Shown in pieces: positions 6,954 to 38,741 of a DNA stretch of 38,741 nucleotides; within the stretch, counting starts at the first letter, position 1; every line of letters starts with the position of its first letter. A program made the position numbers and the translations under genes. Location of the stretch: NCBI GenBank assembly GCA_031267375.1, contig JAIRZE010000086.1:1-38741 (forward strand). Reading direction: 5' to 3'. The notes below the pieces were generated by a model. It was not told the origin of the DNA and ran no database searches. It worked only from the letters and a program-made list of their open reading frames with translations. This DNA is from Rickettsiales bacterium (GTDB taxonomy: Bacteria > Pseudomonadota > Alphaproteobacteria > Rs-D84).

Positions 6954-8258
6954 ATGCAAAAATGTAAGATAAAACGCGGAATTAACAAGGTTGTAGACTG
7001 TGTCGCCAAGACAGCGGGAAAATATGGCAAAAACATAATATTCACAAATTCAGCAGATTCAATCGCCACAAAAGACGGCGTGTCCGTCGTCCGTATGTTT
7101 AACCTGACGGATTCGGCAGAGATGACCGGCGTGAATCTGGTGCGGCAAGCTTGCGAGCAACAATTGCGCGAACACGGCGATGGCACGACGGCGACAGCGG
7201 TAATTATGCGCGAATTTTGCAAGCATAAATACACGCGCCAAGATATAGATTTTATTGATGTACAGCTTGAAAATTTGGAATTAAACAAGCTTCAAAATTG
7301 GGATTTAATGGATATAGCGACTGTATCCAGCAACGGCAATATGCCGATCAGCGCCGCGGTTGTGGAAGCTGTTAAAAAAATAGGCATAAACGGCAAGTTT
7401 ACCGGCGAACAGTGGTTTGAAAAAGGCATAAAAGTCAAGTATGCCCACGGTTTTGAATTCGGAAATGGTTTTATTTCAGAACAATTCGCAGATTCTGGGC
7501 AGTGGCACGCGATTAACCCCAAAGTGCTGATTTTTGATAATTATTCCGCAAGCGACAAAACACTGTTGGATGTCATATCCGCAAGCTTTCAGGCGGGTCA
7601 GCCGGTGCTGATTATCGGCAATCCGGACGAGTTGTTCTTGCGAAATGCAATTAATTGGAAAGGTGCCGGCAAGGGCGATATATGCCTGGTCCAGCCGTAT
7701 GGTATGGGCCACATTCGCCGAGATTTTATGAAAGATATTTTAGAGATCGCCGCCGTTGGAGTGGAAGAAGTGTATGTTAAGAATCATAGTACTGTTATAA
7801 GGTATTCCGGCGACCTATCGGATTATATCGCGAAGATTGAATCGTTGGAATTTGAAAGCGAATTGGAAAGGACTGAAAATAACGAGCGGATTGCCCGTTT
7901 GAAAGGCAATGTTGCGCGCTTTTTGGTTGGCGAGGATACAATCGCCGGCCTGCGCGCTGCAACCGACTGTCTGGATGACACTATTAAATCCTGTCTGTCG
8001 GCCGAAAAGCACGGCGCAGTCAAGGGCGGCGGGTTGGCGTTGTTTGAAGCGTCCAAGTCTGCGCATCTGCATCCGGCGTTAAGGGCGGCGATGCGGGCAC
8101 CGTATAAAAGCCTGCGCCGTTTGGGCAAAGTTGTCATAAGCGGCGATATAATAGATAGCGCCGGAGTTGTGAAAGCTTCATTGAAAAACGGCTGGGAGGC
8201 GGCAAAGCAGTTTATTAAGTCTGCCGATTTAATAATAGCCAAAGAGCCTGCGCGATGA
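6954..8258 (+). CDS. groEL: Phage-encoded, shortened GroEL/Cpn60-like chaperonin
   Basis: TKDGVSV, GDGTT, ATVSSNG (compare TISANS), ERIARLKGNVA (compare ERVAKLAGGVA), LDDT (D398 position), GAVKGGGLAL and IIDS. 434 aa; no GGM tail. Confidence 0.93.
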   Translation: MQKCKIKRGINKVVDCVAKTAGKYGKNIIFTNSADSIATKDGVSVVRMFNLTDSAEMTGVNLVRQACEQQLREHGDGTTATAVIMREFCKHKYTRQDIDFIDVQLENLELNKLQNWDLMDIATVSSNGNMPISAAVVEAVKKIGINGKFTGEQWFEKGIKVKYAHGFEFGNGFISEQFADSGQWHAINPKVLIFDNYSASDKTLLDVISASFQAGQPVLIIGNPDELFLRNAINWKGAGKGDICLVQPYGMGHIRRDFMKDILEIAAVGVEEVYVKNHSTVIRYSGDLSDYIAKIESLEFESELERTENNERIARLKGNVARFLVGEDTIAGLRAATDCLDDTIKSCLSAEKHGAVKGGGLALFEASKSAHLHPALRAAMRAPYKSLRRLGKVVISGDIIDSAGVVKASLKNGWEAAKQFIKSADLIIAKEPAR

Positions 8259-8848
8259 GCTATAACGAAATAGAACTTAAAAGAATACAGAAAAGCCGCG
8301 ATATACCGGCTTTTTTCTTTGTAAAACCACTGTACAACAGCGCGAAAAGCTTGTCCGCCGGCCGCCCCATATATGATCCGGTAATAATGCTGCAAGTTGA
8401 CACTGGCGGAACAGCAACTGTTGAAATAAAAGAATTTGCCGCGACGCCTGAATTAAAAAAACTGTATTCTGACGCTTGGAAATTTTTTGAAACCTATCAG
8501 GCGCCGCAGGTAAGAACCGGTATAAACGATCTGGAAATAGAAGAGCTGGCCGAACAGCACCCAGAAATTTATAGGGAATATATAAAGAATTGCAAAACCG
8601 CAACCGGGATAAGCGGGACACTAATTGAAGAACTGAACATTATTCCGATATCGGTGGTCCAAGAGTTGAAATCAATAGGTGTGTTTTATATAGAGCAGAT
8701 CTGGGATGAAACCGTGCCAACCGAAATTATAACAAGGGAAATATTGGACGCGGCCAAGCGCTATAAAAAGCTGTCCGAGCATAATTTTGATCTGAATCAG
8801 CTGGCCGACACGATAGACCAACTTTGCGATAAATTGGAAAATAAATAA
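8255..8848 (+). CDS. Hypothetical phage protein (head-tail junction)
   Basis: ATGA overlap with the groEL stop. 'S..AGRPIYD' and 'GT.IEEL..I....V.ELK.IG....EQ' recall a family I associate with this position in podophages. Confidence 0.6.
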   Translation: MSYNEIELKRIQKSRDIPAFFFVKPLYNSAKSLSAGRPIYDPVIMLQVDTGGTATVEIKEFAATPELKKLYSDAWKFFETYQAPQVRTGINDLEIEELAEQHPEIYREYIKNCKTATGISGTLIEELNIIPISVVQELKSIGVFYIEQIWDETVPTEIITREILDAAKRYKKLSEHNFDLNQLADTIDQLCDKLENK

Positions 8849-8853
8849 GGATA

Positions 8854-9339
8854 ATGAATAATAAAAAGCCGATTTTAAGCGAGATTTTAGCATTAGGGGC
8901 TGCCGAGGTGCCACAGCCAACCAGTGGGTCAGTATTATCCCAATTATGTGATTCTATCGGAGTTCCAAAACAAATGTTAGATCGTCAACTGCAAGCATCA
9001 CGAGCAAATGCAGATATGACAGCCCGAAATTACATATTAGGCGATACTGACGATTATTGGCACAGGCTGGCAGTCGCAGAGCAGGCAAATAAGGGTGTTA
9101 TTCCAGGGCGCTTAGCTTTGTTGTTGGGGCGAGCCAAGGAAGATTTGGTTGATCTTCCGTATTATACATATAAAGACGGCTTGTCCAAAGCTTTGGAGTA
9201 CCGAAGAAAAGACTTGCAAAGGAATTCTGACGGATATAAAATAGGGCGTGAAACACCTGCATCGCGATTAAGCGAAGTTTTGGAATTTTATAAAAATAAC
9301 TCTTTGAAAGATTGGTGGTTAAAATATGGCGATAAATAA
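8854..9339 (+). CDS. Serum amyloid A (SAA)-like domain protein (putative)
   Basis: 'DMTARNYILGDTDDYWHR...A.KG...A..LG.AKE...KDLQRNSDGYKIG' parallels SAA '[17 protein letters not shown]...AAKRG...A...S.ARE...ADQAANEWGRSG'. Confidence 0.55.
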   Translation: MNNKKPILSEILALGAAEVPQPTSGSVLSQLCDSIGVPKQMLDRQLQASRANADMTARNYILGDTDDYWHRLAVAEQANKGVIPGRLALLLGRAKEDLVDLPYYTYKDGLSKALEYRRKDLQRNSDGYKIGRETPASRLSEVLEFYKNNSLKDWWLKYGDK

Positions 9340-9520
9340 ATATATTAAAATTCCACTATGTATTATAAGTGTATGGGTTATATGCGTGTTTGGCGCCGCC
9401 GCAATATTTCCGTCGTTTGAAAATATTGACGAAGCGCGTGGATGCGGCAAAGCTGAGTTTTCAGTTCCACAAAATTGTGTTATAGGTGGCGATCCGACAA
9501 TCTGGTGTCATACTTGTTAA
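9326..9520 (+). CDS. Small single-pass membrane protein with Cys-containing C-terminus
   Basis: 64 aa with hydrophobic IPLCIISVWVICVFGAAAIF; overlaps the upstream gene by 14 nt. Confidence 0.55.
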   Translation: MAINKYIKIPLCIISVWVICVFGAAAIFPSFENIDEARGCGKAEFSVPQNCVIGGDPTIWCHTC

Positions 9521-9538
9521 AATTTGTATTATAATTCA

Positions 9539-9566
9539 AAAAACACCCGCAAAAGCGGGTGTTTTT
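9539..9566. terminator. Bidirectional intrinsic terminator
   Basis: AAAAACACCCGC-AAAA-GCGGGTGTTTTT. Confidence 0.85.
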
Positions 9567-10650: not shown

Positions 10651-12159
10651 ATGCGCTGGAAAGAATCTGCACCAATCAATGGATTAGATCTAAAATCTTT
10701 GAAATCGGAAGTCCAAGACGGCTTTGCATTGCAGCTGAATAACCTGCTGCCGGATTTTGGCGCGGTAAAGGTCAGGCGCGGTTATTTCCCACTGATTAAC
10801 TTTAATACGCTGATGCCCGTAACGCGCATTATGAAGTTTGCAGATGCAAAGCAAATGATATACGCGTCCGGCAGTCAGCTTTTTATAAACGGAAGCCCGA
10901 TTTACACGGGCGCACAATCCGATTACTGGGTGGAAGCTTACCTGAAACATAACCTGTACCTGTGCAATGGTTTTGACACGGCAAAAGTTTACAATGGCAC
11001 AGCAGTCAGCGATATAGGGTTTACGAATGCCCTGGTATCTATCCAGAATTACGCCTGGTGCGCGAATCTGAATGGCGAGATTGTTTTCGGGATGCCAAAT
11101 TCTTTGGATATTTATGCGCCCGGAGTCGGCGTGGTATCCGGGCCGCTGAATCTGTTCAGCCTTTCTCAGTACGCCAAGCGCGGCGGATATATCGTATGCG
11201 CGGTATCCTGGGGACGCGACGCGTCCGACGGGTTTCATTCATATTCCGGCTTTTATACATCCGAGGGCGAGCTGATAGTTTATGAGGGCGCGGGATTCGG
11301 CGACGCGTCCGGCGATGTGTCGCTGGTGGGTAATTTTTATATCGGCCGCCCGCTGGGGCCGCGGCCGTACATAAATTACGGCGCGGAAATAATATTCATA
11401 ACCCAATCCGGGCTGATGCCGATGTCCGCAATCGTTGCAAACGGCGAAGTCATTAAGCGGTCTGATTTGTTCAGCGATTTAATCAACAATCTGTTCGCTG
11501 ACGGACCAAACAGCCAAGAATGGTGCGCGCATATTTCGCCAAAACAAAATATTGCCATTTTCAACCTGCCGGCCGAATATGGCAACCGCCAAGCGGTTAT
11601 GAACATAAACACCGGCGCGTGGAGTACTTTCAGCGGCTTTGATGCGCTGGATTTTGCTGATGATTTTGACGGCAACCTACTGATTGCAGGGCGCGACGGC
11701 ACGGTGTATCAATACGGCGGCCTTTCCGATAACGGCGGCCAAATTGAAACAACAATTCAATTCCGCTATTCAAAATGCGGCACTGATTATAATAAGCTGT
11801 TTAAGCTATTCGGCCTACGGTTGGAATCATCGGACGAGATTCGGCCGACATTTACGGTTGCAAAAGATTACTTGGATAAAACGCTGGGGTTTTCCGAATC
11901 CGCGGGCAATACCGGCAATGACTGGGCTATAACCGATGACCCGAATCCCGCGCTGGCAGATCCGACAGATCCGTCAGTTGGAATATTCTGGGACAGCGAA
12001 AAGTGGGGCGGCCTTTATCCGAAAGAGCTTTATAAATGGCATTCAATATCCGGATACGGACAGGCGCTGTCTGTAATTTGCAATATATCAACAAAAGATA
12101 TTGATTATAAAATTTATGAAAATCTTTATGAATTTGAAGTGTCAAGGGGCAAGTTATGA
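10651..12159 (+). CDS. Tail nozzle / stabilisation protein (tail tubular B, P22 gp10-like)
   Basis: 'APINGLD...ALQLNNLLPDFGAVKVRRGY' start, followed by ~500 aa of beta-propeller-like sequence. Confidence 0.82.
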   Translation: MRWKESAPINGLDLKSLKSEVQDGFALQLNNLLPDFGAVKVRRGYFPLINFNTLMPVTRIMKFADAKQMIYASGSQLFINGSPIYTGAQSDYWVEAYLKHNLYLCNGFDTAKVYNGTAVSDIGFTNALVSIQNYAWCANLNGEIVFGMPNSLDIYAPGVGVVSGPLNLFSLSQYAKRGGYIVCAVSWGRDASDGFHSYSGFYTSEGELIVYEGAGFGDASGDVSLVGNFYIGRPLGPRPYINYGAEIIFITQSGLMPMSAIVANGEVIKRSDLFSDLINNLFADGPNSQEWCAHISPKQNIAIFNLPAEYGNRQAVMNINTGAWSTFSGFDALDFADDFDGNLLIAGRDGTVYQYGGLSDNGGQIETTIQFRYSKCGTDYNKLFKLFGLRLESSDEIRPTFTVAKDYLDKTLGFSESAGNTGNDWAITDDPNPALADPTDPSVGIFWDSEKWGGLYPKELYKWHSISGYGQALSVICNISTKDIDYKIYENLYEFEVSRGKL

Positions 12160-12599
12160 GATTAACATACTATGCCTATCCCAATGGCGCCGTGTTTTTT
12201 AATTGGTGCAACAAGAAATTAAAGGGCAGATTAACGCAGTATAATTTTGTGCTTGCAATACAAGAAGAATCTGGTAAGATAAAAGGCGTAGTGGTTCTTA
12301 CCACATTTCCGCATAATCTGTATATAGACTGTGCTGGAATAGGAATGTGGCTGACACGCGACATTCTGAACAATATATTTAATTTCTGTTTCAAAAATTT
12401 ATCCTATAAAAGAATAACAGCCCTGACCAGTGCCAAGAATCACCGGGTGCACAAGTTTATATCGCGCCTGGGGTTTCGGCGCGAAGCTGTTCAAAAATAT
12501 GCTTGGGACGGGGAAATAGCTATGTGGACATTCGGTTTAGTTTGGGAAAACTGGTGCGCCACAAAATTTTATAAAAAAGGAAGAAAAAATGCCGGTTAA
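12156..12599 (+). CDS. GNAT-family acetyltransferase-like protein of the podovirus tail module
   Basis: 'RITALTSAKNHRVHKFISRLGFRREA' is a GNAT C-terminal motif; lies between nozzle and fibre genes. Confidence 0.75.
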   Translation: MRLTYYAYPNGAVFFNWCNKKLKGRLTQYNFVLAIQEESGKIKGVVVLTTFPHNLYIDCAGIGMWLTRDILNNIFNFCFKNLSYKRITALTSAKNHRVHKFISRLGFRREAVQKYAWDGEIAMWTFGLVWENWCATKFYKKGRKNAG

Positions 12600-18795: not shown

Positions 18796-19142
18796 TGGCG
18801 GAAAAAATCAACTCTAAAGAAGAAAATTTGAAATGGGCAAAAGAAACTGTTGCTGCCAGAATTGCTGAAAATCTGATCAAGGAATCAGAATCAATTAAAG
18901 AATATCTGCCTTTGATCCAAATATTGGAAGATAATAATTTTAAGGGCGGCGCCCGGATGATTCGCGAAATTATCGCGGACGAGAAAAATCACATAATCCT
19001 ACTTATGGGGTTAATTCGCGAATTTGACGGCAATATTCCAAATTCCAACCGCCGCCGACTACGTGGAACAGGCGTTAAAACAAATCAGAACCAACTTACA
19101 GGAAGAATAAATGCCAATAGACACAATACTAAGTCGGGATAA
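18795..19142 (+). CDS. Half-ferritin (ExxY...DExxH) protein with an apparently frameshifted C-terminus
   Basis: 'KESESIKEY...IIADEKNH'. A tandem ATTCCAA x2 at 19035-19048 shifts the frame away from a TAA at 19108-19110 that abuts the next ATG. Confidence 0.6.
   Translation: MAEKINSKEENLKWAKETVAARIAENLIKESESIKEYLPLIQILEDNNFKGGARMIREIIADEKNHIILLMGLIREFDGNIPNSNRRRLRGTGVKTNQNQLTGRINANRHNTKSG
19035..19048 (+). repeat. 7-nt tandem duplication ATTCCAA x2
   Basis: Read directly from the sequence. Confidence 0.9.
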
Positions 19143-21192
19143 CCAGAATAATTTGGCGTTGCGAGTTTTAATAAATGATCCGGCGCAGCTAAAAGACGAA
19201 CTATTAACGCGCGACGAACACGGCAACCTGTGTATGCGCGTTGATTTGCAGGGTGGCACCGGCCCGCAAGGAGCGCAGGGCGCACAGGGGAATCAAGGCG
19301 CCCAGGGTGTAGTTGGCGCCCAAGGCCCGCAAGGGGATATTGGCGCAACCGGCGCCCAGGGGAATCAAGGCTGGCAGGGCATCGTCGGCGCCCAAGGTCC
19401 CCAGGGCGCGGACGGAATATCTGTGAATATTCAACCGGGTGTGTATTCGGCGTCAAACCCGCTGCCGGCATTTGGCACGACAGCCGAGGGACAGGCTTTT
19501 ATATACCAAGATTCCAACAATCTTTACGATTTATATATACATCCAATCGGCGGGACAGGCTGGCTGATTATTGATGATTGGGCCGGTATTCCCGGGCCAA
19601 CCGGCCCGCAAGGTAGTCAAGGCCCGCAGGGACCAACCGGCCCGCAAGGGGTCAGCGGGTCAGCGGGTCCAACTGGCGCACAGGGTCCAACTGGCGCCCA
19701 AGGCCCAACCGGCCCGCAAGGAGCGCAGGGCGCACAGGGGAATCAAGGCACTGTTGGCGCACAGGGTGTGCGCGGATTCCAAGGGTATCAAGGTCAGCAG
19801 GGCTATCAAGGCACACAGGGTTATCAGGGTTCCGTCGGCGCCCAAGGTGCAACCGGCGCCCAAGGGGTCAGTGGTCCCCAAGGCTCTACCGGCGCAACCG
19901 GTAATCAAGGCTGGCAAGGTAATGTCGGAGCCACCGGCCCGCAGGGTCCAATAGGCGGCTCTGACGGAGCTGCCACCATAGGTAGCCGTATAATTATAAA
20001 CGCTGCCCGCAGCGTGCAAGAGCAGGACCAGCAGGGGACTATCAGTCTGTCCGGCACCACGGCATTCAGCATCGCGGACCACTGGTCCGTACATCCGGAA
20101 ATCTTCACATCCCTTGTTAACGCGGGCATCTTTATTAATAACGGCGACGGAACTTTTGTTGCATCTCCAAACGCGCGGAGCATAGAAAGGTATAATACGA
20201 GTGCCAACAGCGCTATATCGCTTAGCCTTAGTGTTGGAAGTTATACCAGTCCAGCCACTGGTATACTTGTATATACTAATGCGACAGGGAGTGGAAGTAA
20301 CAACAGCCAAAACGGCATAGTTATAACCATTAATGGTACCCGCTATGATATGATACACGGGTGGAGTGGCGCGGATTATATGTCCGGTTTCGGAACCGTA
20401 TATATCAACAAGGGCGACACTTACGAAATCTTATATACAAACAACGGAACTCTGCTAATCCAGCCGGCAATATATCGTAATGACGAATATATCATCACGG
20501 ACAAGTATATATCCAATTACACCGCGCCAGCGGCGGCGCCTGTGTTTAACTATGCCGTTGGCGATATTACAATAAAAAGCATACCGCTGTCTGTATCAGA
20601 GCAGGATTCGCTTGGCGCCATAAGCCTTGACAGCACTAGCGCGTGGAACATCGCGACGCACTGGGCAAACAATATGACGCAGTACAATGCGTTAGTTGCA
20701 GAGGGTGCGTTGATAGACAATGGCAACGGTACTTTCACTGTCAATAATTTTTATGCAGGATTTACCTGCAAACAAAAGATTTTTGACACCGGATTTCAGG
20801 AAGTAAATGATATTGTTATATCTGGAACAGATAATCAGGTTTGGCCGCATAATCTGAATCTGACACAGAATCAGATTGAAGCTGGAATTACTTTCCGTAT
20901 ATATCTAAAATACAAAGGAAGTCCGGGAAGCACAAATTATCCCGCTGGCTCGGTCTTTGAATCAGACATCCGGGACGATGCCGCATTCCCGGAGTATCCA
21001 GTGATATCGGCAAACAATATTTCATTCGGCGCAAGTGCACCGACGCAAATATGTGTTTTTTATAATAGCAATGGAGCCACTGCTTGGGTTGGATATAACA
21101 ACAATAGTAATTCTTTTCTTATGAAATGGATTTTGGAAGCAAACGCGCCGATAAAGAATGGCTATCTTATTACTGGTAAATGGGGGGCGTAG
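19111..21192 (+). CDS. Collagen-like (Gly-X-Y) fibre protein
   Basis: Two long G-X-Y tracts ([12 protein letters not shown]) and a duplicated domain 'SV.EQD..G.ISL..T.A..IA.HW.......LV..G..I.NG.GTF'. Confidence 0.85.
19258..19749 (+). repeat. 42-bp exact direct repeat in the collagen tracts (19258-19299 and 19708-19749)
   Basis: ACCGGCCCGCAAGGAGCGCAGGGCGCACAGGGGAATCAAGGC occurs twice, 450 nt apart. Confidence 0.85.
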
Positions 21193-21194
21193 AT

Positions 21195-21458
21195 ATGCAA
21201 GAATTAATCAAAGATATTCTGACCCTTGGGTATAACCGATATAAAGAAAATCGTAAGTTTCAGCAGAAAATGCTGACCGTTGTGGACAAACTGGACGTGG
21301 CGGAAATCGTGCTGAAACGCCTGGAATTCCTTAACTGTTATCAACACAAAGGAAACTATCAAACGCTTTGCAAATTATACGATGAGTATAAGAAGCTGGG
21401 CGGCAATAGCTATATTGATGATTTGTTTTTGAATTACAAAAAAGGACAAAAAAAATGA
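21195..21458 (+). CDS. Lysis-cassette-associated small protein (YxxYxxLGGN motif)
   Basis: 'LYDEYKKLGGNSYIDDL' motif, which I associate with genes next to holins; likely start ATG 21195. Confidence 0.6.
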   Translation: MQELIKDILTLGYNRYKENRKFQQKMLTVVDKLDVAEIVLKRLEFLNCYQHKGNYQTLCKLYDEYKKLGGNSYIDDLFLNYKKGQKK

Positions 21459-21748
21459 AGAAATGGTTTAATTCTTGGGAATGGCTAAAATGCAGTAATG
21501 GCAACTGGAATTTTGCGCGTATAGTTAGCGTTTTATTTCTTGTGCCTATACAGGCTTATACTCTGGCTCATACTATATCAATTAAGGGGCTGGAATCAAT
21601 CGGCAGCCTATATCAGTGGCTTGTCGTTTTTATACCCGGTGAACTGATAATTTTTCTGTTTGCGCTGGAAATCTGGCGCGACATAAAAAATACAGGATTG
21701 CGCTTGAAAGTCGGGGACAAGGAAATCAATATCGGCAAAGCCGAGTAA
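21455..21748 (+). CDS. Putative holin (two TM helices)
   Basis: 97 aa with two hydrophobic segments and a charged C-terminus; ATGA overlap with the upstream gene. Confidence 0.55.
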   Translation: MKKWFNSWEWLKCSNGNWNFARIVSVLFLVPIQAYTLAHTISIKGLESIGSLYQWLVVFIPGELIIFLFALEIWRDIKNTGLRLKVGDKEINIGKAE

Positions 21749-21855
21749 ACAGTTTGGCACAAAAGGCCCGATTCAAATGCGTTCTTGGGCCTGCCAAAGT
21801 TGACTTCCTGGATTCGGGAAGTCAATCAATTTAACTCAAAAAAAGGATAAATAAA

Positions 21856-22020
21856 ATGATAAAAGATAAAAATAAGTTATGCGAAAAGTGTGCGCTTATA
21901 TTTTTGAAGTCATCTTTTAATTTTTGCCCTTATTGTGGAAAAAAATTAAAAGCCACAGATTTACAAATAAATTACAGCGAGCATTATATGCCAATAGCGC
22001 AAATAAACAAAGTTGAATAA
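21856..22020 (+). CDS. Small zinc-ribbon protein (54 aa, absent from the ORF track)
   Basis: AAGGA RBS; MIKDKNKLCEKC...FCPYCGKKL. Confidence 0.65.
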   Translation: MIKDKNKLCEKCALIFLKSSFNFCPYCGKKLKATDLQINYSEHYMPIAQINKVE

Positions 22021-22024
22021 AAAT

Positions 22025-22276
22025 ATGCGAAAGAAAGCTGCCAAAAGGTTATTTGCCAACCTGTCAGAGCCGATACTCTGTTGCATCTGCGGCGCGGCGA
22101 TACTTAATCCAAAAGAGCTTTCAAAGGAGCACGAGCCGCCACTATCCAGAGGCGGCACGAAAAACGGCTGGGCCTGGGCGCACAAGTCCTGCAATAACCG
22201 CAAGGGCGCACTGACACAGCAAGAGTATCAGCAATGGCTGATACTTGAAAAACGGAGGCACGGCAATGAGCGTTAA
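22025..22276 (+). CDS. HNH endonuclease
   Basis: CCICG...EHEPPLSRGG...AHKSCNNRKG. Confidence 0.85.
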   Translation: MRKKAAKRLFANLSEPILCCICGAAILNPKELSKEHEPPLSRGGTKNGWAWAHKSCNNRKGALTQQEYQQWLILEKRRHGNER

Positions 22277-22412
22277 ACTGACTGGTTGCGATTCTTGGCT
22301 GCGCCGTTGGCTATGCAGGCTTCGCGGCGGCAAATTGCGTTGTTGCTATAATTATAATAACCAACCGGTTGGATGCTACTGCCGTAGTGTCAAAAAAAAC
22401 AAGAAAGGGTAG
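22266..22412 (+). CDS. Small basic Cys-rich hypothetical protein (48 aa)
   Basis: ATG 22266 after GGAGG, to TAG 22412; fills the gap between the HNH and glutaredoxin genes. Confidence 0.4.
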   Translation: MSVKLTGCDSWLRRWLCRLRGGKLRCCYNYNNQPVGCYCRSVKKNKKG

Positions 22413-22416
22413 CATA

Positions 22417-22701
22417 ATGCAAGAAGCACACATAATAAAAGAATCAATGCTGTTATGGACTGGTGATAATTGCAAATACTGCGATGAATTGCACCAGAAA
22501 GCAGAAGAAACTGGCACACTTTTGCCAATTAAATTAAATGCTCGCGAGCATTTGGATAGGGCAAAAGAGCTTGGGATTAAAACTATCCCAACACTTTACT
22601 ACAACGGCCAGTTGATAACTGGCGTTGATGAAATCCTGAGCGTTATACGCGCAGAAATGCAACTACAAGCCGAAATGGGGGATAAAAGGAGTAAAAAATG
22701 A
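22417..22701 (+). CDS. Glutaredoxin/NrdH-like thioredoxin-fold protein
   Basis: CKYC redox motif, 'IPTLYYNGQLITG' cis-Pro motif; likely start ATG 22417. Confidence 0.8.
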   Translation: MQEAHIIKESMLLWTGDNCKYCDELHQKAEETGTLLPIKLNAREHLDRAKELGIKTIPTLYYNGQLITGVDEILSVIRAEMQLQAEMGDKRSKK

Positions 22702-23168
22702 TAGAATTGATAGGCTTTACAATAATAGGTATGTTTTTTATAAGCATTTTTATCTTTATTTTTGCGGCGGAAGAAATATTGGAGCGTCGGGCTGCCAGGC
22801 ACGCCGCTAAACAAACCCCAAAAAAGCCCGACACGAAGCGTTGCGAGTTTGGTCTGTGCGTGTTATTGGCCTGTGCGCTGGGTTTGTCTGCGTGCGGCAC
22901 TACGCCGCCGTCAAAAGCTATTCTGGATAACGCGGGTGCGCAAATTGAAAATGTTAAGAAGCAGGTAGCAGCGCTGCCGACCGAGTGCAACGCGCAGCCG
23001 ATAATTGCGCAGCTGGATGCAATCGCCGGGGCGCAACAGGCGGCGGCCGCCGCGTGCGAGTCGGAAAAGGCCCCGATTCGGAAAGATATCTGGATATGGC
23101 GTCTGATAAGCGGCTTTCTAGCGACCATTATCGCAGCGTTTGTTGTATACAAAGTAATCAAAAAATAG
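22698..23168 (+). CDS. Membrane protein with internal lipobox and C-terminal TM helix; possible unimolecular spanin
   Basis: N-terminal TM, 'LLACALGLSA-C' lipobox, helical linker, C-terminal TM 'WIWRLISGFLATIIAAFVVY'; directly upstream of the endolysin. Confidence 0.45.
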   Translation: MIELIGFTIIGMFFISIFIFIFAAEEILERRAARHAAKQTPKKPDTKRCEFGLCVLLACALGLSACGTTPPSKAILDNAGAQIENVKKQVAALPTECNAQPIIAQLDAIAGAQQAAAAACESEKAPIRKDIWIWRLISGFLATIIAAFVVYKVIKK

Positions 23169-23192
23169 CAAAAAAATCAATTGGAGGGGTAA

Positions 23193-23777
23193 ATGTCTTA
23201 TTCGGAAAATTTTACAAAATCATTAAAACCGCTATTGGCGGCCGAGGGTGGCTATGTATGCCGAGCATCTGACACTGGCGGCCAGACTTACGCCGGTATC
23301 ACGCGTCGTGATAATCCAGGCTGCGCGTTTTGGAGCCAAATTGACGACATCTGTACGAAGATGTCGCAAAAGTCAAGTAATGGCACGGACGAGCTGGCAC
23401 GGACGATTAATAAAGTCCTGAGTGTTAATCAGCGCGCGCAATCGGAGATTGCGGAATGCTATCACGCGCGGTACTGGTTGCCCGCGAACTGCGACAGTCT
23501 GCCGTGGCCGATATGCGCGATAGTGTTTTCAACGGCCGTGAACTGCGGCACGGTTCCCGCAAAAAAGATACTGCAACAGGCACTCGGAGTCGTGGTGGAC
23601 GGCAATGTCGGCCCCAAGACTTTGGCGGCCGTTGAATCGGCGAATCAGAATACCTTAAAAGCCAAATACTGCGATGTACTGACTGCGCATTATCAGGGGA
23701 TTGTGTCCAAGAATCCCGCGCAAAAGCCGAATCTGACCGGCTGGCTTCGCCGAGTTGCGGATCTGCGCAAACTTTGA
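23193..23777 (+). CDS. Endolysin, GH108 family with a peptidoglycan-binding domain
   Basis: 'EGGYV...DTGGQTYAGIT', 'AVNCG', 'DGNVGPKTLAA', 'GWLRRV'. Confidence 0.92.
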   Translation: MSYSENFTKSLKPLLAAEGGYVCRASDTGGQTYAGITRRDNPGCAFWSQIDDICTKMSQKSSNGTDELARTINKVLSVNQRAQSEIAECYHARYWLPANCDSLPWPICAIVFSTAVNCGTVPAKKILQQALGVVVDGNVGPKTLAAVESANQNTLKAKYCDVLTAHYQGIVSKNPAQKPNLTGWLRRVADLRKL

Positions 23778-28789: not shown

Positions 28790-28887
28790 AACTTGTAATA
28801 GCGCCATTTTGGATGAATTGGGCATTTTGGGCCGCTGGATATAACTCCTATTATGTGTTTGTAAATATAGATAAATGGGTTAAATAA
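28786..28887 (+). CDS. Small Trp-rich peptide (33 aa) translationally coupled to the integrase
   Basis: ATGA overlap upstream and TAATG overlap with the integrase start; MKLVIAPFWMNWAFWAAGYNSYYVFVNIDKWVK. Confidence 0.45.
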   Translation: MKLVIAPFWMNWAFWAAGYNSYYVFVNIDKWVK

Positions 28888-30452
28888 TGAGCAACAACGC
28901 AGTCATTTATGCCAGAGTGTCTTCGGCCCAGCAGCGCCGGGATAATTCCATTGCGTCCCAGCTGGACGCCTGTCGCAAGTATGCGGCGGCGCGGGGTATG
29001 ACTGTGGTCCGTGAATTTATGGATGACGGATTTTCGGGCAAAAATGACCAGCGGCCGGACTTACAAAATATGCTGCGTTGGCTGAAAAAGAATCCGGACA
29101 CAACGGTCATAGCTTACGATACATCGCGCATAGCCCGGCATATCGGAACTATGTGCAATATCAGCGACGCAATAGATGTGGCGGATTGCAGTTTGTCATT
29201 CGTGGTAATGAACTTTGATAAAACGCCCGAGGGCGAATTTATGAAGAATATGATTTCCGCCCAGAATCAATACTTCCGCGAATCCAATACAAGAAAGGTA
29301 AAAGACAGTATGCTGAGCCAGATGAAGCTGGGTATATACCTGCTGAATCCGCCAATAGGATATGCAAGGTCAAGGGACGGCCAGAAACGACTGGTACTGG
29401 TAAGGGACGAGCCAACAGCAACGATAATAGCGGAAGCAATAGGCAAATACGCCACAGGACAACTGAATACAAAGCTTGATGTTGCAGACTGGCTGAACAA
29501 AAGACTGTCAAAGCCGATAGGTGAAGACACGGCCCGAAGAATAGTAGAGAGCCCAGTATACACTGCAAGGTTTGCTTACAAGCCCTGGGGTATACCAGAG
29601 CAGGATTGGCATATAGAACCAATAATAACCCCAGAACTGCACCAAAGGGTAATGGATAGGATAAAAGGCATAGGAAGACACCAGATGCGAAGCAACCTAC
29701 TTGAAGACTTTCCATTACGGGGATATGTAATCTGTGGATACTGCGGACACCCATTGACCAGCTGTTGGTCAAGTGGAAAGAATAATAAGTTCCCATACTA
29801 TTTTTGCTCCCAGAAAGGATGCAGTCATTATGGCAAGTCAATCCGCCGGGCGGACATTGAAGATGCAATGCTGACCGTTTTAAGCGACATCAGGGCAGAT
29901 GATAGCATTCTTGCGCTGGTTGACCTTATTATTGACAATGTTGCAGAAAAAGCGCATAATGAAGCATTGGCAAGCGCGAAGAACTTAAACGGCGTTATTG
30001 CCGATATTCAGAAAGAAATTGATGCGCTGGTGGATTTGATTGCGAAGCGCTCTTTGAATTGTGCGCTGGCCAATGACCCAGTGGCGGCGCAGTACGAAGA
30101 CAAGATTTGGAAATTGACTTCCCGGATTCAGGAATTGAAAGCAGATCAAAAGAATCTGGAAACCGGGCACGCAGGCAAGGATTATAGGGCAGCGTTTGAA
30201 CGGACGCGTGAGTTCATTAGAACACCTGTAAAATTGTTTGAAAATGGCGATTTATCGCAGAAAAGAAAGGTGCTTGAAGTAGTATTCAAGGGTAAACCGA
30301 GGTATTTCAGAAATGAGGGTTATAGAACACCGGAAATAGCCGAGATTTTCAGCATTTTATCAGAAAAAAACGAGAGTAAAATAGATTGGTGCACCCGGCG
30401 CGATTCGAACGCGCAATCCCCGCCTTCGGAGGGCGATGCTCTATCCAGTTAA
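28887..30452 (+). CDS. int: Large serine recombinase (integrase)
   Basis: YARVSS catalytic motif, D.GFSG...RP.L, SRIAR, recombinase domain, zinc ribbon CGYCG...YYFC...C, coiled coil. Confidence 0.95.
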   Translation: MSNNAVIYARVSSAQQRRDNSIASQLDACRKYAAARGMTVVREFMDDGFSGKNDQRPDLQNMLRWLKKNPDTTVIAYDTSRIARHIGTMCNISDAIDVADCSLSFVVMNFDKTPEGEFMKNMISAQNQYFRESNTRKVKDSMLSQMKLGIYLLNPPIGYARSRDGQKRLVLVRDEPTATIIAEAIGKYATGQLNTKLDVADWLNKRLSKPIGEDTARRIVESPVYTARFAYKPWGIPEQDWHIEPIITPELHQRVMDRIKGIGRHQMRSNLLEDFPLRGYVICGYCGHPLTSCWSSGKNNKFPYYFCSQKGCSHYGKSIRRADIEDAMLTVLSDIRADDSILALVDLIIDNVAEKAHNEALASAKNLNGVIADIQKEIDALVDLIAKRSLNCALANDPVAAQYEDKIWKLTSRIQELKADQKNLETGHAGKDYRAAFERTREFIRTPVKLFENGDLSQKRKVLEVVFKGKPRYFRNEGYRTPEIAEIFSILSEKNESKIDWCTRRDSNAQSPPSEGDALSS

Positions 30453-30463
30453 GCCACGGGTGC
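30387..30463 (-). tRNA. tRNA-Arg(CCG), probable prophage attachment site
   Basis: Minus strand GCACCCG...CTCCGAA...GTTCGAATC...CGGGTGC-A-CCA; all stems pair; 77 nt. Confidence 0.95.
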
Positions 30464-30473
30464 ATTGCCGATT

Positions 30474-30502
30474 ACTATAAATCATTATTCCCGCCCTTGC
30501 AA
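30474..30502 (-). promoter_or_regulatory. Promoter of tRNA-Arg
   Basis: TTGCAA-17 nt-TATAGT on the minus strand, about 10 nt upstream of the tRNA. Confidence 0.7.
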
Positions 30503-30577
30503 ATAAAAATAATCACGCGAGCACAACAAAGCTATCTTTATGCGCTCGGACAGAAATCAAAACGAACACGCAGTGTT

Positions 30578-30702
30578 CGTCATCCCTTTGAGGCTCGGGA
30601 TCCACTGCGTCGCAGACCTTAATCCTCGAAGCGGATACACTGTATAAATGCTTCGCATTAAAGCCTGCGGCGCAGTGGATCCCGGCCTGCGCCGGGATGA
30701 CG
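30578..30702. repeat. REPIN/REP-like long imperfect palindrome
   Basis: CGTCATCCC...GGGATCCACTGCGTCGCAG...CTGCGGCGCAGTGGATCCC...GGGATGACG; contains a GTCATCCCGGCGCAGGCCGGGATCCA unit on the minus strand. Confidence 0.75.
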
Positions 30703-30797
30703 ATTTACTTCGTAAATCGTTTTGATTTTATTTTGATTCTTAAAAGATACACTCTTTGCACTTGCATCTATAATAATAATTGACTACAATTTGGCAA

Positions 30798-31259
30798 ATG
30801 AAAAAGTTCCTGCCGTTTTTATTAATCCTGGCCGCCTGCAACAGTATGTATATAAAGCCGGATACGATTGACAAGACAAAAACCGTATTCGCCGGGCGCG
30901 GCGGTTATTCTATGACGCGCAGCATAAAAGAAAGAATGGAAGAACGCGGATACAATGTCATAGTCGGCGTGGCAAGGACTATTTACACAGTTGATATAAC
31001 CGATGACGAATGGAATGATGTGCGCGATTTCAAAGGAAATAAAGTTCCAAAAGAAGCACGCTATGTTGTCAATGTTTCGGAACGGCGCGAGAAATTCTTT
31101 CCGACCTGGTGTTTGTTCAATGGTTTCTGGTGGTGGAATTTCAATGTTTCTATCGCAGACCAGATGACCGGCGAAGAGCTGTTATCTTGGCGCGGCCGCG
31201 GCTGCGCGAACAGCTCTCTGCGCAAGCTGGACGCCGCTTTGGATGAATTAGAGAAATAA
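30798..31259 (+). CDS. Host lipoprotein, unknown function
   Basis: MKKFLPFLLILAA-C lipobox; likely start ATG 30798. Confidence 0.78.
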   Translation: MKKFLPFLLILAACNSMYIKPDTIDKTKTVFAGRGGYSMTRSIKERMEERGYNVIVGVARTIYTVDITDDEWNDVRDFKGNKVPKEARYVVNVSERREKFFPTWCLFNGFWWWNFNVSIADQMTGEELLSWRGRGCANSSLRKLDAALDELEK

Positions 31260-31280
31260 CTGGATTCCTTTATTCAAACA

Positions 31281-31321
31281 CCCTCCCCGGCCACTTCGTG
31301 GCCACCCCTCCATAGGAGGGG
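31281..31321. repeat. REP-like double hairpin
   Basis: GGCCAC-ttc-GTGGCC followed by CCCCTCC-ata-GGAGGGG. Confidence 0.55.
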
Positions 31322-31379
31322 AATTTTCACCGAGTTTAATTTCCACCAATTGCTAATTGATAATTGCTAACTGCTAATT

Positions 31380-31403
31380 AAAAACGCCCAAACGGGCGTT
31401 TTT
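31380..31403. terminator. Bidirectional terminator between the lipoprotein gene and aqpZ
   Basis: AAAAACGCCC-AAAC-GGGCGTTTTT. Confidence 0.85.
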
Positions 31404-32080
31404 TACTTTGTCTTCTTTTTGCTTTCCAGCAGGTATTTCCAAACAAATCCCGCCAGCACCGCGCCCGCTATCGGCGCGACCCAAAACACCCACAGCTGAG
31501 CCATTGCCGCCGGATCCGTCGCAAACAAAGCCTGGGATGTGCTGCGCGCCGGATTCACCGATGTATTCGTAATCGGTATGCTGACCAAGTGTATCGCCGT
31601 CAATGCAAGTCCTATTGCTACGCCTGCAAATTTATTAAACGCATCCTTTGCCGTGGTTCCCAGAATCACCAGCAAAAACACCGCCGTCATCACGACTTCG
31701 CACAGCACCGCCGCGCACAAGGTATAGGTTCCATAAATATTTGCCGCAAATCCGCCTACATCAACGCCGCCGCCGGAAACGCCCGTCGCAATTCCATAAA
31801 TCACGGCCGCGCCCAATATCGCGCCCGCAACCTGAGCCACCACATACGGCAGGACAGAGCGCCACTTGAAACAGCCCGCCGTCGCCAAGCCGATTGACAC
31901 CGCCGGATTGAAATGTCCGCCGGAAATCGGGCCGACTGCATAGGCCATAACCAGAACGGAAAGTCCGAATGCCAAAGCGATTCCTGCGAAGCCTATGTAC
32001 GCGCCCGCAAGCACGGCAGAGCCGCAGCCGAACAGAACCAAGACAAAAGTCCCCAATAATTCTGCGAAAAGTTTTTTCAT
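31403..32080 (-). CDS. aqpZ: Aquaporin Z
   Basis: [34 protein letters not shown]. Confidence 0.95.
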
Positions 32081-32192
32081 AGTAAAGCCTCCATTGCTTA
32101 TACGGCTGTAATTATGACAGAAATCCTAAACTGAAAAAAGGATAAAAAAAACTTGCATTTTGATCGGCAATACTATAAACTGCACGGGCATC

Positions 32193-32268
32193 GGCTAGGT
32201 AGCTCAGTTGGTAGAGCAAGGGACTGAAAATCCCTGTGTCGGCGGTTCGATTCCGTCCCTAGCCACCA
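32193..32268 (+). tRNA. tRNA-Phe(GAA)
   Basis: GGCTAGG...CTGAAAA...GGTTCGATTCC...CCTAGCC-A-CCA; 76 nt; upstream TTGCAT-17 nt-TAAACT. Confidence 0.96.
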
Positions 32269-32302
32269 CCCTTCGCTGCTGCGCAGCTTCGGGTGGCAAG
32301 CC
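32266..32302. repeat. Short REP-like hairpin after tRNA-Phe
   Basis: CCACCC-TTCG-CTGC..GCAG-CTTC-GGGTGG-CAAGCC. Confidence 0.4.
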
Positions 32303-32318
32303 AGAAATCACAATCTCC

Positions 32319-37583: not shown

Positions 37584-37656
37584 AGAATCTCTCTTTTCTT
37601 GTACCGGATTTATTTTATATAAAAATGTTGTATGGATTTATAGGCAAATATTCTTA

Positions 37657-38725
37657 CTATCTCTGCAACAGGGAAAGCATAAAGTCATCCAGGTCCCCGT
37701 CCAGCACCGCCGCGCTGTCCGTCTTTTCCACACCGGTGCGCACATCCTTTACCAGCTGGTACGGATACAGGACATAGTTCCTGATCTGGCTGCCCCATTC
37801 TATCTTTTTCTGGGCGGCTTTTTCGGCATCCGCTTCCGCGGCGCGTTTCTGCATTTCTAATTCGTATAATTTAGACCGCAGCATCTTCATCGCCATTTCG
37901 CGGTTTTGCAGCTGTGATCGCTCGTTCTGGCACTGCACCACCGTGTTGGTCGGCAAGTGAGTTATCCGCACCGCGCTGTCCGTTTTATTAACGTGCTGGC
38001 CGCCCGCGCCCTGGGCCCGGTAAGTATCTATGCGCAGATCTTTTTCATTAATCTCTATCTCTATGGAATCGTCAATGTCGGGCCAGACATCAATGCTGGC
38101 GAAACTGGTCTGACGCTTTCCATTCGCATTAAAAGGCGAAATTCGCACCAGGCGGTGAACCCCAATCTCGTTTTTCAGCCAGCCGTACGCGCGCGGGCCG
38201 CTTATCTGAAAAGTTGCGCTTTTTATTCCGGCGGTGTCCCCCGGATGCTCTTCCACGACAGATACCGCAAAGCCGTGCCGCTCCGCCCAGCGCTGATACA
38301 TTCGCGACAGCATCTGGGCCCAGTCTTGGGCCTCGGTCCCGCCGGCGCCCGCCTGGATAAAAAGAAATGCGTCCTGGCCGTCCGCCGGACCACTGAATAA
38401 AGTGATGAATTTTGCCCTGTGCGCGGATTCCGCAAGTTTTGAAACAGCAGCGGCGACATCCAAATCTTCCGGCGCCATTTGCGCCAACTCGCGCAGGTTT
38501 TCATATTCTGTTTCCAAAGCGGCAAATTCGCCCAGGGATTTTTCCAATGCTGATTTTTTTTGCAAAAGCACGCGCGCAGAATCAGGATTGCTCCACAGGT
38601 CCGGGTTATTTGTCTGGGCGGTTAAATCGGCGATTTGGGATTTCAGGGAATCCGGGTCAAAGATACCCCCGCAGCGAAGAAACATCGCTGTCAATTTGGG
38701 CTAAAAGTTCATTTGCATTTACCAT
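37657..38725 (-). CDS. prfB: Peptide chain release factor 2 with programmed +1 frameshift
   Basis: SPF and GGQ motifs. ATG 38725 opens MVNANELLAQIDSDVSSLRGYL-TGA, and the frame shifts at CTT-TGA-C into the 345-aa ORF. Confidence 0.96.
38656..38670 (-). promoter_or_regulatory. RF2 +1 frameshift cassette
   Basis: GGGGG-TAT-CTTTGAC (internal SD plus slippery stop) on the minus strand. Confidence 0.93.
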
Positions 38726-38741
38726 AAATTGATTCTAGCAA

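Follow-up and report, generated by a model that had tools for sequence, protein, structure and literature searches.

We analysed a stretch of 38,741 nucleotides (nt) from a Rickettsiales bacterium (GCA_031267375.1, contig JAIRZE010000086.1, forward strand; hereafter, the window), which is an integrated prophage, and found that it encodes a divergent, stand-alone relative of serum amyloid A (SAA). The SAA-like protein, of 161 amino acids (aa), is encoded together with a 64-aa membrane protein, and the two overlapping genes are closed by a terminator. These three elements (the gene for the SAA-like candidate enzyme, the small membrane gene and the terminator) form a conserved unit, which is accessory and mobile. 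We lean towards reading the pair as a mobile accessory effector-immunity cassette of the prokaryotic SAA (prok-SAA) type within the Lipocone superfamily, carried by a temperate phage and acting in the periplasm on lipid-linked envelope precursors.

Homology and predicted fold of the SAA-like protein

The SAA-like gene (prok-SAA / Lipocone; positions 8854..9339 including the stop codon, + strand) was defined from its open reading frame (ORF), profile matches and an AlphaFold2 (AF2) model. Searched as a single sequence, its product gave no match in Pfam, PHROGs or the PDB; it did not match Pfam SAA even at E <= 10, nor was it among the matches of a genome-wide Pfam SAA scan, and it thus lies below the curated gathering cut-off of that family (PF00277; 30.8 bits). 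An exhaustive phmmer search of 1.84 billion representative proteins recovered six relatives (E 3e-23 to 2e-4), a number so small that the family must be considered very rare. These six and the window protein were combined into a family profile of seven sequences. A word-indexed homologue search recovered the query alone when the single 161-aa sequence was used, and five proteins when the family profile was used.

The seven-sequence profile was then compared with all PDB chain sequences, and its top eight matches were all serum amyloid A. The best of them, 7zh7_A (E 3.9e-6), covered profile positions 40-121, that is, nearly the whole SAA domain. Three of the seven family members touched the Pfam SAA model weakly (best E 0.0029), and the hhalign comparison of the family with three bacterial proteins above the cut-off of Pfam SAA reached a probability of 77.5% and an E-value of 1.9e-5.

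An AF2 model based on the single sequence was unusable (predicted local distance difference test, pLDDT, 39), whereas an eight-sequence alignment yielded a confident, all-helical model with mean pLDDT 79. The helical SAA/Lipocone core (residues 37-161; 8962..9336, +), defined from this model and the alignment, had block means of pLDDT of 86-95 over most of its length and lower values at its first and last few residues. Helices were predicted at residues 39-57, 66-80, 82-108 and 110-133, followed by two C-terminal ones at 136-146 and 149-158; the model shows the four-helix core and shorter fifth helix of a soluble Lipocone protein, and no hydrophobic membrane segment is seen in the sequence. 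The N-terminal extension (residues 1-36; 8854..8961, +) had pLDDT < 50 and is variable and predicted to be disordered; a short amphipathic helix ('xxLxxAL') recurs in it, and it does not correspond to a signal peptide. In a Foldseek search of the PDB, four mouse SAA3 chains came first (probability 0.72-0.90, target-normalised TM-scores 0.42-0.51), all other entries having a probability of 0.12 or lower.

Searches among phages were negative: Foldseek gave no meaningful match for the SAA-like model in the BFVD viral structure models, a megablast comparison of the region with GenBank phages returned nothing, and in 50,697 deposited phage genomes tblastn detected no homologue of the window protein, of the protein of context L025 or of a canonical peptidoglycan-binding-domain-SAA protein.

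Since the profile, profile-profile, weak Pfam and AF2/Foldseek results agree, we place the 161-aa protein in the SAA lineage, of which, judging from its sequence and its model, it is a divergent member by true homology. The SAA-like residue spacing that the earlier note on this DNA had read in the protein goes beyond chance, yet is visible only by profile (no match for the single sequence against E 3.9e-6 for the profile), and the profile and fold comparisons that the note had proposed both pointed to SAA, mouse SAA3 being the best Foldseek match though with weak E-values.

Conservation of a candidate active site

SAA has been grouped with Wnt, TelC, VanZ, YfiM and the phosphatidylserine synthases in the 'Lipocone' superfamily (Burroughs, Nicastro & Aravind 2025, eLife, PMC12419801). 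The chemistry predicted for this superfamily is the cleavage or exchange of phosphate-linked lipid head groups, and the proposed active site combines a His in helix 2, a Glu in helix 3 together with an acidic residue close to the end of that helix, and an Asp/Asn in helix 4, the last falling within a sNxxGR motif in the SAA-Wnt clade (PMC12419801). Lipocone activity has been demonstrated for TelC, PTDSS, VanZ/Llp1 and YfiM only (PMC12419801; bioRxiv 10.64898/2026.09.16.752124): TelC cleaves lipid II (PMC12419801), and YfiM and VanZ/Llp1 are Ca2+-dependent lipid-linked-oligosaccharide pyrophosphatases that need the equivalent His, Glu and Asp (bioRxiv 10.64898/2026.09.16.752124).

Conservation was examined in an alignment of 14 sequences comprising phage-type and canonical bacterial SAA domains. 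Residues D66, H70 and E96 were invariant throughout, G81, D120 and N124 were nearly so (N124 is replaced by Asp in one member), and D100 was invariant within the phage-type family. H70, E96, D100 and D120/N124 coincide with the His of helix 2, the Glu of helix 3, the acidic position late in helix 3 and the Asp/Asn of helix 4 in the Lipocone proposal. From this alignment and the scheme of PMC12419801, the candidate catalytic codons in the window are those of H70 (9061-9063), E96 (9139-9141) and N124 (9223-9225), and also those of D100 and D120, all on the + strand. The helix 4 motif of the window protein reads R-N124-S-D-G127-Y; it retains the N-x-x-G but lacks the small residue and the Arg, and a 'GR' stands four residues later.

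The SAA-like proteins retain 21-48% identity among themselves, and such a strict conservation of polar His, Glu, Asp and Asn residues across very divergent members argues for chemistry rather than packing. Because the candidate catalytic positions are conserved, the 161-aa protein looks like a catalytically intact and active Lipocone enzyme. The earlier note had taken lipid binding to be the relevant property of SAA; this conserved His/Glu/Asp-Asn pocket (PMC12419801) is probably the relevant feature instead.

We also observed that the family member P0004 (125 aa) loses similarity beyond the Glu of helix 3, its C-terminal part reading 'APTHLARLATNNIYRRMRLRVP...'; it is probably a frameshifted or decayed copy.

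The membrane partner, the terminator and the expression of the unit

The partner gene (64 aa; 9326..9520, +) overlaps the SAA-like gene by 14 nt, with its start codon inside the last codons of the latter. In its product, a lysine-bearing N-terminus is followed by one hydrophobic helix (residues 9-27, nt 9350-9406; Kyte-Doolittle 2.55) that contains two Cys, and by an acidic tail that contains four more (Cys40, 51, 61 and 64); the tail is predicted to face the periplasm. The intrinsic terminator that follows (9539-9566, given on the + strand; about -18.9 kcal/mol) is a symmetric hairpin with a 12-bp stem and a CACCCGC/GCGGGTG core, preceded by an A-run and followed by a T-run, and the tail-gene block comes next. 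The two ORFs, their overlap, the single membrane helix with Cys-containing tail and the strong hairpin were all as the earlier note had described them.

We examined the same arrangement in the window and in contexts L001, L002-4, L005-7, L008-9, L010 (partner start only, at a contig end), L024, L025 and L026. In every context a small membrane-helix gene overlapped or abutted the 3' end of the SAA-like gene on the same strand, and a hairpin with T-run lay directly 3' of the partner gene in all seven of the seven phage contexts. Partner length varied widely: 64 aa in the window, 53 aa in L002-4, 75 aa in L005-7, 96 aa in L008-9, 118 aa in L001, 60 aa in L024, 59 aa in L025, and 28 aa, with only the membrane helix, in L026. 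Across contexts the partners shared an N-terminal helix (Kyte-Doolittle 2.55-3.29), a basic N-terminus and an acidic Cys-bearing tail, with two to eight tail cysteines in all complete partners except the 28-aa one of L026. The partner tails diverge beyond recognition while the enzymes keep their similarity, as is expected of immunity proteins.

Two further possibilities concerning the partner were considered and set aside. A C-x-x-G-G...W...C likeness between phage and canonical partner tails, seen by eye, is not claimed here; hidden Markov models (HMMs) gave no signal for it. The identity of the 64-aa partner as a holin was ranked low in view of the acidic Cys-rich tail, the presence of other holin candidates and the occurrence of the same architecture after a Rhs toxin.

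The SAA-like gene begins 5 nt past the upstream late gene. A weak sigma-70-like match (TTGCAA-17-TAAAAT, 9 of 12; 9214..9242, +) lies inside it, 84 nt 5' of the partner start, and could possibly, with low confidence, serve as an independent promoter for the partner; a second weak 9-of-12 match lies at 8834-8862, and the region has 15 promoter-like matches against 8.7 expected from shuffles. The guanine-plus-cytosine fraction of the unit is 0.37-0.43, against 0.45-0.58 in most neighbouring genes, and is similarly low in the upstream gene for a 197-aa protein.

Position and distribution of the unit among phages

A search for related loci with a single 502-aa tail protein found nothing, and related phages were found by portal alignment. 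Phages with portal, capsid and tail genes of the window type carry the unit at four different positions. In the window it sits between the 197-aa head-module gene and the first tail gene; in L008, between a terminase/acetyltransferase and the capsid gene; in L002-4, past the portal block and ahead of the fibre genes; and in L024-L026, three IMG/VR genomes, between a unimolecular spanin (u-spanin), recognised from its lipobox and C-terminal membrane helix, and an M15-type endolysin (with Pfam support in L024 only). In addition, an unrelated prophage-like region (L005-7) has a spanin-like gene, the SAA-like gene, a membrane protein gene, a terminator and a gene for a DUF5675 protein (a putative endolysin) in this order. 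By position, the unit is transcribed with the late genes, and it shows a marked, though not exclusive, preference for the lysis cassette. The window partner lies 13.7 kb from the GH108 endolysin, whereas in L024 and L025 the partner directly precedes the endolysin.

Phage G404 has the unit between u-spanin and endolysin. In its close relative G405, a complete genome with terminal repeats, the spanin gene stands right next to the endolysin gene and no SAA-like gene is found anywhere; the two spanins appear closely similar, at roughly 75% identity as judged by eye, without a computed alignment. The unit is thus accessory and mobile, as its positions vary among relatives and G405 is devoid of it, and it has the features of a moron: presence or absence between otherwise collinear relatives, variable sites and its own terminator. 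Presence and absence in related phages, to which the earlier note had pointed as a check, show that these are not universal structural genes. The placement in a virion operon that the same note had proposed is correct in the window, where the unit stands between head and tail genes, but it is not a general property of the cassette, since other phages differ.

Some further observations were made in these contexts. In phage G403 (L024 740-1480), an HNH-type homing-endonuclease-like ORF runs in frame into the u-spanin gene, just upstream of the SAA-like gene, and this arrangement suggests a recent insertion at the lysis cassette. The region of the SAA pair in L005 (1-2210 and 10001-11121) encodes a polyvalent protein of >1250 aa (ART-PolyVal and MuF_C), a PBECR3-like protein and a Fic protein. 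The DUF5675 protein (141 aa) was found in L006 (3753-4178) and L002 (9118-9543), and the L006 copy, after the SAA-like pair, contains 'HSGNTHADTDGCILLG', which we take to resemble the catalytic motif of YkuD-type L,D-transpeptidases. A PDB sequence search with the L006 protein gave no match; the DUF5675 protein may be an uncharacterised type of endolysin.

SAA-domain genes in bacterial genomes

A Pfam SAA scan of 401 genomes from the phylum of the host returned three matches, all above the curated cut-off. One forms the C-terminal tip of a Rhs protein, beyond the ...DPxGL boundary (L012); another, in a genome of the host's class (G269), has a peptidoglycan-binding-like N-terminal region, as read by eye; and the third is stand-alone. 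Downstream of each of the three genes stands a small ORF, whose product combines an N-terminal membrane helix with a short Cys-loop tail (~D-x-C-x-D-x-G-G-x-W...C). The phage-type subfamily also includes P0008, which shares 35% identity with the window protein and is fused to PG_binding_1; its gene was found in a bacterial chromosome, together with a membrane/Cys partner and an adjoining second gene copy. This second, near-identical PG_binding_1 and SAA-like gene (L001 11599-12072) stands ~470 nt past the first pair and is cut by the contig end; the L001 locus is bacterial chromosome near accB/accC, mreB and mutS, and the tandem array is of the kind typical for polymorphic toxin loci.

The 2025 catalogue describes prok-SAA with the entries 'PGBD(f), TM+Imm-SAA' and 'T6SS, MuF, TM+Imm-SAA', and the Lipocone immunity proteins listed there are all membrane proteins or lipoproteins (PMC12419801). 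No phage (Duplodnaviria) context for prok-SAA appears in that catalogue, and no association with spanins or lysis cassettes in its text or supplements (PMC12419801). The membrane/Cys partners of the bacterial SAA toxins favour, by analogy, the effector-immunity reading, and are the strongest support that we have for it. The toxin/immunity-like and moron-like character that the earlier note had ascribed to the pair holds as far as the conserved unit and the partners of the same kind in bacterial SAA toxins are concerned; at the level of the partner tails it finds no counterpart, as these show no detectable sequence similarity.

Proposed mechanism and alternative explanations

Under the effector-immunity reading, the 161-aa protein would be a soluble SAA-fold enzyme whose predicted His/Glu/Asp-Asn pocket cuts the phosphate-linked head groups of envelope lipids. 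The attack would come from the periplasmic side, and its likeliest targets would be precursors linked to undecaprenyl pyrophosphate, for example lipid II. The enzyme should stay harmless as long as it is in the cytoplasm, because it has no signal peptide; it would be produced with the late genes and freed at phage lysis, in the manner of a colicin. The translationally coupled 64-aa protein would be anchored in the inner membrane and extend a small, disulfide-bonded tail into the periplasm, where it would neutralise the enzyme at the periplasmic face and so protect the sibling cells that carry the phage.

Several results weigh against this proposal. Four of about eight phage contexts sit between u-spanin and endolysin, which fits a role in lysis at least equally well. 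Pfam and PHROG scans and inspection of the N-terminus revealed in the 161-aa protein neither a signal peptide nor a Rhs, PAAR, MuF or LXG delivery domain, and nothing in its domain content accounts for entry into another cell's periplasm. With a gap of 5 nt to the upstream gene and no clear promoter of its own, the unit may not provide immunity protein in uninduced lysogens. In L026 the partner is a tail-less membrane peptide of 28 aa. Among 4846 ORFs, an HMM of the three canonical Pfam-SAA partner tails picked out no phage partner, and searching in the opposite direction gave no match either; because the partner tails have no detectable similarity, the label 'immunity' is drawn from architecture and position alone. 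Finally, the window protein itself misses the Pfam SAA threshold, and the Foldseek E-values for SAA3 are weak (about 0.4-0.6, best 0.38).

The last two points, together with the failure of the single sequence to match Pfam SAA or the PDB and a family alignment of just seven or eight sequences, would be expected if the resemblance to SAA were convergent or spurious and the protein an unrelated helical bundle. We find this hardly credible, since the profile search (E 3.9e-6), the profile-profile comparison (E 1.9e-5) and the best fold match to SAA3 agree, and the aligned motif residues coincide with the conserved SAA signature across the whole domain. A true SAA relative might still be non-catalytic, either a binder of lipids or hydrophobic ligands or an assembly/chaperone accessory of the head-tail junction, with the membrane protein as unrelated neighbouring cargo. 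Experiments have established that vertebrate SAA is a helical bundle that binds lipid and retinol (one of the fold matches is PDB 6py0), no SAA-family protein is known to have enzyme activity, and a GroEL-like gene (6954-8258), an unusual assembly helper, lies nearby; nevertheless, the strict polar His/Glu/Asp/Asn conservation at the proposed active site of the superfamily, the coupling of the partner by overlapping codons in every context and the accessory, mobile nature of the cassette make this explanation quite improbable. Delivery within the virion is improbable to a lesser degree. In that case the enzyme would be packaged via its N-terminal extension and ejected into the periplasm, where a local break of envelope-lipid or cell-wall synthesis would aid DNA entry, and the partner would act in superinfection exclusion, shielding cells that already carry the phage. 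The co-transcription of the window pair with head and tail genes, the conserved short N-terminal helix ahead of a disordered linker, the combination of a missing signal peptide with a periplasm-facing partner (which fits delivery from outside) and the Lipocone toxins fused to the phage head protein MuF in the 2025 catalogue (PMC12419801) would be in line with it. An entry component would however not be expected to be absent from a complete close relative, to vary in position and to occur often in the lysis cassette, and the PHROG and BFVD searches found no match to known internal virion or ejection proteins.

The role of an auxiliary, 'amurin-like' lysis enzyme deserves more weight, though we still consider it rather unlikely. 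According to this explanation, the SAA-like protein would act against the very cell that the phage has infected: it would destroy lipid II or further lipid-linked envelope precursors there, either from the cytoplasmic face or once the holin has opened the membrane, and so hasten or secure lysis, the partner being a gate, an anchor, a timer or a holin-type protein rather than a defence against attack from outside. It accounts well for the order u-spanin, SAA-like gene, small membrane protein gene, terminator and M15-type or DUF5675 putative endolysin gene in L024, L025, L026 and L005-7, where the partner occupies the slot just ahead of the endolysin that is a frequent holin location. The fusion of a peptidoglycan-binding domain without signal peptide (P0008, and the PGBD-like region of G269) is the usual layout of endolysins, and overexpression of YfiM, itself a Lipocone enzyme, leads to osmotic lysis in E. 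coli (bioRxiv 10.64898/2026.09.16.752124). The cassette is however dispensable, as spanin adjoins endolysin in the complete G405, and the copies of the window, L002 and L008 are far from lysis genes. A terminator stands between cassette and endolysin, and other holin candidates exist (the 97-aa two-helix protein of the window, 21455-21748, and a 113-aa protein in L006). The partner tail is acidic, Cys-rich and predicted to be periplasmic, against the usual basic cytoplasmic holin tail, and the same partner architecture follows the Rhs-tipped SAA toxin, where a holin would make no sense. In a related form, which we regard as unlikely, the SAA-like protein would represent a new class of phage lysis-cassette protein: a soluble pyrophosphatase of lipid II or undecaprenyl-pyrophosphate-linked glycans, released onto the periplasmic face at holin triggering or used from the cytoplasmic face, that collapses envelope synthesis and has the partner as its dedicated inhibitor or timer.

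Comparison with known systems

The nearest counterparts of the pair are the prok-SAA toxins with 'TM+Imm-SAA' (PMC12419801). In both sets a soluble helical domain of SAA fold keeps the His/Glu/Asp-Asn positions, the next gene downstream encodes a small Cys-containing protein anchored in the membrane, and fusions to peptidoglycan-binding domains occur. The phage protein differs in being stand-alone and in lacking both a signal peptide and any Rhs, PAAR or MuF module; its subfamily is divergent, below the Pfam SAA threshold, and has a ~36-aa N-terminal extension, a conserved extra acidic residue (D100) and a helix 4 motif N-x-x-G that lacks the Arg. The phage version is moreover found in late and lysis operons of tailed phages, and its partner tails are not detectably similar to those of the toxins.

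Vertebrate SAA (Met-SAA; PDB 4ip8, 4q5g, 7zh7) is homologous over nearly the whole domain, with the spacing DxYxH...KG...A(K/R)E...D..N..G, and is the best structural match of the phage protein. The identity is however about 17%, and the phage protein is longer (N-terminal extension and longer C-terminal helical part), has no secretion signal peptide, is paired with a membrane protein and shows no link to lipoproteins or amyloid.

As for the proposed activity, the TelC-TipC system of Streptococcus intermedius (PMC12419801) shares the superfamily, the cutting of an undecaprenyl-pyrophosphate-linked peptidoglycan precursor outside the cytoplasm (proposed for the phage protein) and a membrane-anchored immunity protein, TipC, that acts at the outer face of the membrane. 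TelC belongs to another Lipocone clade and is exported by a type VII system via its LXG domain, and TipC is larger than the 64-aa partner and unrelated to it. YfiM and VanZ/Llp1 are members of the same superfamily in which catalytic His, Glu and Asp were proven by mutagenesis (bioRxiv 10.64898/2026.09.16.752124); unlike the phage protein, they serve as housekeeping enzymes that are integral to the membrane rather than soluble, are not carried by phages and lack an immunity partner.

The working mode that we propose for the phage pair resembles that of colicin M and Cmi. Colicin M is a lipid II-cleaving toxin that lacks a signal peptide and is freed by cell lysis, and Cmi, the small protein that confers immunity to it, is anchored through a membrane helix at its N-terminus and has a periplasmic domain that contains a disulfide. 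Colicin M differs in its unrelated fold, its plasmid location and its receptor-binding and translocation domains (FhuA/TonB), which are missing in the phage protein. MuF polymorphic toxins of temperate phages were reportedly described by Jamet et al. in 2017. Like them, the window pair is a putative toxin-immunity pair within a phage morphogenesis operon, and L005 also carries the ART-PolyVal/MuF_C polyvalent protein; unlike them, the SAA domain is not fused to MuF or to a head protein, and several of its copies are in the lysis cassette. Delivery of Lipocone toxins by MuF has been noted (PMC12419801).

Genomic setting of the window

The window contains genes for terminase, portal, major capsid protein, a GroEL-like protein, tail and fibre proteins, a lysis block and a large serine recombinase; its marker families are phrog_12082 (portal), phrog_9953 (capsid), and phrog_6013 and phrog_5107 (tail). 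No terminal repeats were found in the window. The junction between prophage and host lies at its right end (28887-38741), which begins with the large serine recombinase (28887-30452). Host-type genes follow, all on the - strand; they encode an aquaporin (31403-32080), a protein of 1753 aa that has Pmp repeats of the Chlamydia type (32319-37583) and a peptide-chain release factor (37657-38694). The contig belongs to a host genome of 0.92 Mb that is 78% complete, and this small-genome diderm is probably host-associated.

The lysis block (21455-23777, +) comprises a two-helix holin candidate of 97 aa (21455-21748), a thioredoxin/glutaredoxin-like gene (110 aa; 22369-22701), a unimolecular-spanin-like protein of 156 aa (22698-23168), in which an additional membrane helix at the N-terminus precedes a lipobox (LSAC) and the C-terminus carries another membrane helix, and a GH108 and PG_binding_3 endolysin (23193-23777), which the spanin-like gene abuts. 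The presence of a redox protein beside a Cys-containing spanin is unusual.

The GroEL/Cpn60-like gene (434 aa; 6954-8258, +) lies within the head module and matches phrog_5725 (E 3.6e-50). Its product is shorter than cellular GroEL, and the Pfam Cpn60_TCP1 match spans only N-terminal residues 15-90, just below the cut-off; homologues are present in the related IMG/VR phages L017-L019. The 693-aa tail fibre (19111-21192, +) has long collagen-like G-X-Y repeats (repeat family D1, 19270-19946). A GNAT acetyltransferase gene (phrog_4470; 12156-12599, +) stands among the tail genes of the window, and in L008 a GNAT gene (2059-2481) is found directly upstream of the SAA-like pair. The Lipocone catalogue lists a GNAT fusion for a phage Min-Wnt domain (PMC12419801), and the GNAT genes of the window and L008 may be linked to the Lipocone cassette.

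Significance

The type of system to which the pair seems to belong is already known: prok-SAA toxins with a membrane-anchored immunity protein, including peptidoglycan-binding fusions and MuF-linked versions, were catalogued computationally in 2025 (PMC12419801). The earlier note did not recognise a phage SAA-like cassette as characterised; the system type is by now recognised, and the stand-alone phage version is absent from that catalogue. New here are the divergent, stand-alone, phage-borne SAA subfamily, the terminator-closed two-gene layout and the repeated placement between spanin and endolysin.

What serum amyloid A does biochemically has long been an open question, and a proposal of 2025 holds that SAA-family proteins are lipid-head-group-cutting enzymes descended from bacterial toxins (PMC12419801). 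The cassette described here is a minimal two-gene version of about 0.7 kb, with a 161-aa soluble enzyme candidate and a 64-aa candidate inhibitor. It shows that tailed phages have acquired an SAA-type domain, in a diderm bacterium that has a small genome and is probably host-associated. The marked candidate catalytic residues of the cassette and its natural presence or absence in phages that are otherwise similar make assays of toxicity, neutralisation and substrate straightforward with laboratory strains. The repeated spanin-endolysin position raises the possibility of a lysis accessory that targets lipid precursors, or of a phage-released bacteriocin. If the SAA-like protein does represent a new lysis-cassette class, it would join holin, endolysin and spanin as a fourth functional element, and would be the first member of the SAA family with a genetically tractable enzymatic phenotype.

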